Shown: positions 34,398 to 34,473 of the stretch, piece after piece
How positions within the stretch are numbered: position 1 is the stretch's first letter
Layout of the letters: each line of letters opens with the position of its first letter
Position numbers and translations under genes: made by a program
Assembly: GCF_054482525.1 (NCBI RefSeq)
Contig: NZ_CM137006.1
DNA: 64,000 bases
Direction: 5' to 3' (one strand)
The notes under the pieces: generated by a model
Database searches by the model: none
What the model was told of the DNA's origin: nothing
What the model saw: the letters and a program-made list of their open reading frames with translations, nothing else

Positions 34398-34473
34398 GTT
34401 AACGTTAACTTTTATAAAAATAAAGTCCATTACTTTCATAAATGCGATGAATATCACAAATGTTAACGTTAAC
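34398..34473. promoter_or_regulatory. cscA-cscK divergent control region with two identical GTTAACGTTAAC palindromes (candidate CscR operators)
   Basis: 12-bp perfect palindrome at 34398-34409 and again at 34462-34473, in AT-rich DNA between divergent cscA and cscK. Confidence 0.5.

Follow-up and report, generated by a model that had tools for sequence, protein, structure and literature searches.

Two identical palindromes between cscA and cscK of Escherichia coli as probable CscR operators in a conserved arrangement with predicted CRP sites

Two exact copies of the 12-bp palindrome GTTAACGTTAAC are found between the divergently transcribed cscA and cscK genes in the window, the 64-kb stretch of DNA analysed here. 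Taken as a whole, the evidence is best explained if both are operators of CscR, the sucrose-specific LacI-family repressor of the chromosomal csc regulon of E. coli, and we hold this conclusion with high confidence. The pair is already known in this role, as it was described in 2002 and its conservation across species was reported in 2024. New here are a far wider conservation, covering approximately 20 genera and including a fixed spacing of 64 bp, the fixed position of the distal copy between two CRP sites, and the finding that E. coli cscR carries no operator of its own, unlike cscR in Klebsiella- and Enterobacter-type loci. The engineering of E. coli W and K-12 for growth on cheap sucrose builds on the csc regulon, with the csc operators and cscR being routine targets for derepression, and an assignment of the sites to promoters is useful for promoter redesign and for sucrose biosensors.

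The two copies are the only exact ones in the window and are located at 34398-34409 and 34462-34473, precisely where a preliminary description of this DNA had placed them. They were designated O1 (cscA-proximal) and O2 (distal, on the cscKB side). Each is its own reverse complement with CG at the centre, and the same 12 bp can also be parsed as two GTTAAC hexamers in tandem. O1 and O2 are 64 bp apart from start to start, leaving a gap of 52 bp. The AT-rich divergent region in which they had been reported is the 215-bp cscA-cscK spacer (34364-34578), with a GC content of 29.8% compared with 48.7% for the whole window. The number of exact copies expected by chance, from 100 dinucleotide-preserving shuffles of the window, is 0.00 against 2 observed, and by our own estimate at this base composition the probability of a second exact copy within ±100 bp is about 2e-5. 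With their flanks, the putative operators correspond to the 18-bp extended site ATTGTTAACGTTAACTTT at 34395-34412 for O1, and to AATGTTAACGTTAACCAT at 34459-34476 for O2. Because cscA starts at the ATG at 34363, O1 lies 35-46 nt 5′ of its start codon, and O2 lies 106-117 nt 5′ of the cscK ATG.

Elsewhere in the window, 7 matches to GTTAACGTTAAC with 2 mismatches were detected, 6 of them within coding sequence. The seventh, GCTAACGTTAAT at 12335-12346, is 12-23 nt before the alaC start codon (12358) and is the sole near-match outside coding sequence apart from O1 and O2. It was considered as a further CscR target and is probably a chance match.

The locus consists of cscR (31927-32922, + strand), encoding the LacI-family repressor, and three regulated genes, namely cscA for sucrose hydrolase (invertase; 32930-34363, − strand), cscK for fructokinase (34579-35493, + strand) and cscB for the sucrose:H+ symporter (35565-36812, + strand), which is second in the cscKB operon. 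CscR matches PF00356 (residues 3-48, 76.6 bits) and PF00532 (residues 61-329 of 331, 310.8 bits), and the other products match TIGR01322 (479.8 bits; annotated as cscA), NF006957 (507.7 bits) and TIGR00882 (594.5 bits), respectively. cscR is convergent with cscA, and cscA and cscK are divergent. The annotated cscA start at 34363 predicts a 477 aa product (MTQSRLH...) and is preceded by the Shine-Dalgarno sequence AGGA. The first in-frame ATG, at 34372 (480 aa), at which a mechanical ORF list begins cscA, is not the cscA start. On one side the locus is bordered by dsdA (30120-31448, − strand), with a remnant of dsdX between dsdA and cscR, and downstream of cscB it is followed by tRNA-Arg (argW) and then yfdC. 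The set cscR, cscA, cscK and cscB, with divergent cscA and cscKB, between dsdX/dsdA and argW is that of the csc regulon of the EC3132/W type, and this context matches the description in PMC3032704. A 183-bp fragment encoding a DUF4942 domain is present between cscB and argW (window 36890-37330 region; 7593-8029 in locus L001 of the comparative set), and at the other end of the island a truncated dsdX lies beside an intact dsdA. The DUF4942 fragment and the truncated dsdX have the appearance of scars left by the csc island on its known insertion at the argW/dsd hotspot.

CscR is a 331 aa protein in which the PF00532 match reaches residue 329, and it is without the C-terminal tetramerisation helix of the LacI type. 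It is not an orthologue of CytR, scoring 136.6 bits against the CytR model NF008269 with its cut-off of 436. The PDB entry 6NDI ('Transcriptional regulator', 334 aa) is approximately 56% identical to CscR over the full length (E = 1e-113), and a structure of a CscR orthologue therefore exists, unnamed as such. The N-terminus of 6NDI is Klebsiella-type. Between dsdA and cscR (31449-31926) there is no operator-like site with 2 mismatches or fewer, and autoregulation of cscR in E. coli was rejected on this ground. In loci of the Klebsiella, Enterobacter, Raoultella and Serratia types (L028-L059), cscR is divergent from the cassette of operators and CRP sites, and because E. coli cscR has no such site upstream, autoregulation seems, on sequence grounds, to be present in those loci and absent in E. 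coli.

In the cscA-cscK spacer, Jahreis et al. (2002) described a 12-bp inverted repeat that is present twice, both copies being putative CscR operators (cited in both PMC11251922 and PMC3938415), and according to PMC11251922 the same study found that one of the two repeats was hit by a derepressing (up-regulating) mutation. PMC11251922 (2024) reported that the repeats are conserved in five species, bracketing the -35 and -10 elements of the cscA promoter, with the downstream repeat overlapping the cscA start and a Crp site beside the cscA -35. In PMC3938415, a spontaneous 'cscKB operator' mutation that permits growth on low sucrose was re-isolated, and a bidirectional csc promoter with two cAMP-CRP sites is described. 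That csc expression is dependent on CRP is published. In enterohaemorrhagic E. coli (EHEC), loss of cscR raised expression of cscA 58-fold, cscK 156-fold and cscB 28-fold, and a cscA-promoter reporter was higher in the cscR deletion (PMC7486766, 2020), which bears out the earlier proposal that CscR could control both divergent transcripts. A search of the searchable literature for a DNA-binding assay of E. coli CscR (EMSA, footprint or ChIP) found none, and a search of papers for the literal GTTAACGTTAAC returned only unrelated papers.

The features of LacI/GalR-family operators that were looked for were all found at this locus: an even palindrome with a central CG, a position in the range of 30-140 bp, a cognate regulator in the locus and co-occurrence of the motif with orthologues of that regulator. 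In the survey of PMC4052901, even palindromes with CG at the centre make up 1173 of 1303 LacI-family motifs, in line with the remark in the preliminary description that a central CG is typical of LacI-type operators. The length range taken from that survey for family operators is 16-22 nt. More than 75% of LacI-family sites are 30-140 bp upstream of a start codon, and the motifs differ among non-orthologous sucrose regulators (PMC4052901).

Relatives of CscR were scanned in one genome per species, giving a comparative set of 73 loci with orthologues of 48-96% identity. Approximately 20 genera are covered, including Escherichia, Citrobacter, Pluralibacter, Enterobacter, Klebsiella, Raoultella, Lelliottia, Kosakonia, Buttiauxella, Silvania, Erwinia, Tatumella, Rosenbergiella, Pectobacterium, Samsonia, Serratia, Rahnella, Yersinia, Proteus, Providencia, Gilliamella and other Orbaceae, and Aeromonas. 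The gene order across the spacer differs among these loci, being cscA/cscK, cscA/cscB, cscB-cscA/cscR, cscB/cscR or cscA/cscR. Whatever the gene order, a site with no more than one mismatch adjoins csc genes in 72 of the 73 loci, and this, together with the published account of Jahreis et al. as relayed by PMC11251922, agrees with the earlier proposal that the palindromes are candidate CscR operators. The exception, L018, is an orphan regulator with csc genes not nearby. Noncoding DNA upstream of csc genes, 39 kb in total, contains 73 exact copies of the 12-mer against one in the other 1.12 Mb, a density that is about 2000-fold higher upstream of csc genes, and sites with one mismatch are likewise divided 71 to 8. 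The single exact copy outside csc upstream regions in the total of 1.16 Mb is in Proteus myxofaciens (L069, 9027-9038), where a third exact GTTAACGTTAAC is located between the convergent 3′-ends of cscR and cscA.

An 18-bp extended consensus, AATGTTAACGTTAACATT, was derived from 118 distinct orthologous sites, with the flanks not used for selection. The N-terminal recognition region of CscR, SLKDVAxLAxVS[M/L]MTVSR, is invariant in all orthologues, down to those with 48% overall identity. As the motif tracks the orthologues (72 of 73 loci), its flanks are palindromic and the recognition helix is invariant, the motif is linked specifically to CscR.

The spacing between paired sites is 64 bp in 38 loci from many genera, 63 bp in a further 6 and 62 bp in 1. 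Other arrangements are a 57-bp spacing in 4 Gilliamella loci, a 68-69 bp spacing in 9 Proteus loci, a 14-20 bp spacing in 8 cscB/cscR spacers of Orbaceae, and a single site in 8 loci (seven Providencia and Proteus mirabilis L066). In the close pairs of Gilliamella and other Orbaceae (L033, L034, L039, L041, L044, L047, L064 and L071), the sites are 14 bp (or 20 bp) apart, start to start, and read TTTAACGTTAAC-at-GTTAATGTTAAC, unlike the 64-bp cassette. In the cscA/cscK spacer, the same Orbaceae genomes have a pair spaced by 57 bp that is accompanied by a perfect CRP site.

Two predicted CRP sites accompany the pair in the window. CRP site 1, AAATGCGATGAATATCACAAAT (34440-34461; core 34443-34458, centre 34450.5), has 1 mismatch to TGTGA-N6-TCACA, and CRP-like site 2, TTTTGTGATCGAATATGCATGT (34481-34502; core 34484-34499, centre 34491.5), has a perfect TGTGA half-site and mismatches at 3 of 10 positions. 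Their centres are 41 bp apart. The centre of CRP site 1 is 47 bp from that of O1 and 17 bp from that of O2, and this site abuts O2 such that the 22-bp CRP site and the 18-bp extended operator share 3 bp. In 48 of 58 distinct cassettes, a CRP site 1 lies at a centre distance of 46-47 bp (or 39 bp) to O1 and of 17-18 bp to O2, compared with a background frequency of 0.8% of windows for matches with up to 2 mismatches, and a CRP-like site 2 is present 24 bp beyond the centre of O2 in 44 of the 58. The conserved unit is thus O1 -47 bp- CRP1 -17 bp- O2 -24 bp- CRP2, in 44-48 of 58 distinct cassettes. When one representative per genus was compared (14 genera), column identity was highest in O2 (0.99) and O1 (0.95), followed by CRP1 (0.85) and CRP2 (0.69), with the O1-CRP1 spacer at 0.54 and the flanks at 0.42-0.52. 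Rahnella (L061) and Tatumella (L062) retain the whole cassette, CRP2 included, with no divergent gene on the right, and both operators can therefore serve the leftward operon alone. The geometry is not universal, as the Proteus loci with the 68-69 bp spacing contain no clear CRP site and Providencia has a single operator.

A scan of 34340-34620 for consensus promoters and terminators found no sites, as expected for activator-dependent promoters. Because no consensus sigma-70 promoter was found in the spacer, both start sites used here are inferred. The candidate -10 of PcscA, TATTTT (34417-34422, − strand), was placed by geometry and implies a start near 34409-34410. With CRP site 1 at about -41, O1 would cover about +1 to +12 of cscA, a blocking position that agrees with PMC11251922, and O2 would be centred near -58. 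For PcscKB, the only conserved -10-like element is TATCAC (34540-34545, + strand), which belongs to a TATCAMT motif found at a constant offset from O2 in Escherichia, Citrobacter, Pluralibacter and Rosenbergiella. This element would put the cscK start near 34552, CRP-like site 2 near -61 and O2 near -85. Two other roles for the O2 sequence were considered, that of an extended -10 (TGtTAACGT) and that of a cscK -35 (TTAACC), and both were rejected because they require partner elements that are unconserved or would leave CRP at non-activating positions.

In the mechanism proposed here, one CscR dimer would occupy each site when no inducer is present. About 18 bp, aaTGTTAACGTTAACAtt, probably make up the functional site, the hinge region lying at the central CpG. 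CscR on O1, approximately at the start of the CRP-dependent cscA promoter, would block RNA polymerase. CRP site 1 near -41 would serve the cscA promoter, and CRP-like site 2 would serve the rightward cscKB promoter from about -61. Occupation of O2 would interfere with CRP-dependent activation of both promoters and would strengthen repression at O1. At high sucrose, CscR would be released, and cAMP-CRP could then activate both transcripts. Since no operator overlaps the predicted cscKB core promoter, strong repression of cscKB would need an indirect mechanism at O2, and the most likely mode of repression by O2 is interference with CRP-dependent activation, perhaps jointly with O1. Both the mode of action of O2 and any cooperation between O1 and O2 are what we infer from the arrangement of the sites. 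A more far-reaching reading, which we consider improbable, is that O1 -47- CRP -17- O2 -24- CRP is a fixed cassette that has been moved before different genes in about 20 genera and in which O2-bound CscR acts on CRP and not on RNA polymerase. It could do so by keeping CRP off the adjoining site, by anti-activation of the CytR kind between tandem CRP dimers, or through a 64-bp loop that a dimeric repressor makes with the help of the CRP bend. If true, a CRP-acting O2 would explain how cscKB is strongly repressed when its core promoter contains no operator.

Other explanations differ in how the two sites would be used. It is possible, though rather doubtful, that CscR dimers at O1 and O2 associate with the help of the CRP bend to form a loop of about 64 bp enclosing CRP site 1 and the core promoter, in which case the pair would act on the leftward promoter and control of cscKB would be secondary. 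Favouring such a loop, a spacing of 62-64 bp, about six helical turns, is kept in 45 loci from many genera, both operators flank the cscA promoter according to PMC11251922, and Rahnella and Tatumella retain the full cassette with no divergent gene on its right. However, the constant spacing is explained equally well by fixed distances from O1 to CRP and from CRP to O2, and the Gilliamella (57 bp) and Proteus (68-69 bp) pairs are about half a turn out of phase and argue against strict helical phasing. A loop made by a LacI-type tetramer is unlikely because CscR, which ends at residue 331 with PF00532 extending to 329, has no C-terminal extension carrying a tetramerisation helix; a GalR-like association of two CscR dimers is possible. 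Derepression by a separate 'cscKB operator' mutation (PMC3938415) also counts against a pair devoted to the leftward promoter. It is unlikely, too, that O1 acts only on cscA and O2 only on cscKB, with each operator directly occluding its own core promoter. A conserved interval of about 100-105 bp does separate O2 from the start of the rightward gene in Escherichia, Citrobacter, Pluralibacter, Rosenbergiella and Proteus, but the only conserved -10-like element for cscK is located about 67 bp downstream of O2, O2 itself abuts the CRP site of the cscA promoter, and the pair persists where a single operon adjoins. Given that O1 is at the predicted cscA start, that O2 is upstream of both core promoters between the CRP sites, and that the pair is kept beside a single operon, the sites probably do not follow a simple scheme with one operator for each promoter.

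We regard it as very improbable that the palindromes belong to another factor, such as Cra/FruR, ScrR or a further LacI-family protein, or that they are non-regulatory, whether as a chance repeat, a tandem GTTAAC or the end of a mobile element. The central AACGTT does resemble the operators of several LacI-family proteins, and the locus is a horizontally acquired island beside tRNA-Arg argW. Against this, the motif tracks CscR orthologues in 72 of 73 loci whatever the genomic context and is nearly absent from the other 1.12 Mb, the chance expectation is 0.00, and the sites are inside the island in a promoter region and not at its ends. No Rfam family matched at threshold, and the permissive threshold gave one 13.9-bit chance match (gathering score 60), hence no RNA element. 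Loss of cscR alone derepresses both transcripts (PMC7486766).

The closest known system is the E. coli csc regulon itself (EC3132, Jahreis et al., 2002, J Bacteriol 184:5307, as cited in later papers; E. coli W, Sabri et al., 2013), with the same locus, the same repeats and the same proposed repressor. The spacers of E. coli W and the window can be aligned base for base, and both cores are identical. There is no substantial difference from this regulon; position 34474 of the window strain is a rare C, nearly all E. coli having T there. The layout also resembles the ScrR operators that flank the scrY promoter in the scr regulon of pUR400 and Klebsiella. However, ScrR belongs to a different orthologous group with a motif of 14-bp repeats and, unlike CscR, serves a PTS pathway, with fructose or fructose-1-phosphate releasing it from the operator. 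The csc arrangement is like that of O1 and O3 in lac, with the main operator at the start, the auxiliary one located just upstream of a CRP site, and CRP between the two. The lac operators are 92 bp apart and are looped by a LacI tetramer, whereas the csc spacing is 64 bp, CRP is placed near -41 and not at -61.5, and CscR has no tetramerisation tail. In geometry only, O2 is like the LacI-family repressor sites between tandem CRP sites in the CytR/CRP promoters deoP2, cdd and tsx-p2. The CRP sites of deoP2 are about 52-53 bp apart, compared with 41 bp in csc, and in the case of CscR, which is not CytR, the palindrome is strong and perfect and another operator is present at the start site. We know of no contact between CscR and CRP.

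Within E. coli, the csc spacer was detected in 2662 of 5426 complete genomes and was always chromosomal. The window spacer is 100% identical to that of E. coli PCN033, from which the window differs at 921 of 46479 positions. Intactness of each core was assessed with a 36-nt probe requiring an exact 28-nt word, any such word spanning the whole 12-mer. The O1 probe matched 2646 of the 2662 csc-positive genomes, and the O2 probe matched 2640 with T at 34474 and 10 with C. As a match requires the entire 12-mer, each core is intact in at least 99.4% of the 2662 genomes. Over a 351-bp region, 2258 of these genomes are 1-5% divergent from the window, and in Escherichia and Citrobacter the variation is concentrated between O1 and CRP1.

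Position 34474, which is directly 3′ of O2 (GTTAACGTTAAC-C), is C in the window and T in E. coli W, O157:H7, other Escherichia and Citrobacter, and C is rare among the complete E. coli genomes, as the above counts indicate. At the equivalent position of the extended operator consensus, A accounts for 75%, T for 18% and C for 6%. In one strain, E. coli UTAK-5 (L085), the spacer is interrupted by IS100 (IS21 family) at the equivalent of approximately 34514/34515 in the window, between the second CRP-like site and the candidate cscK -10, with a target duplication of the AATCC type. O1 and O2 are intact in UTAK-5, and cscKB is split off from both.
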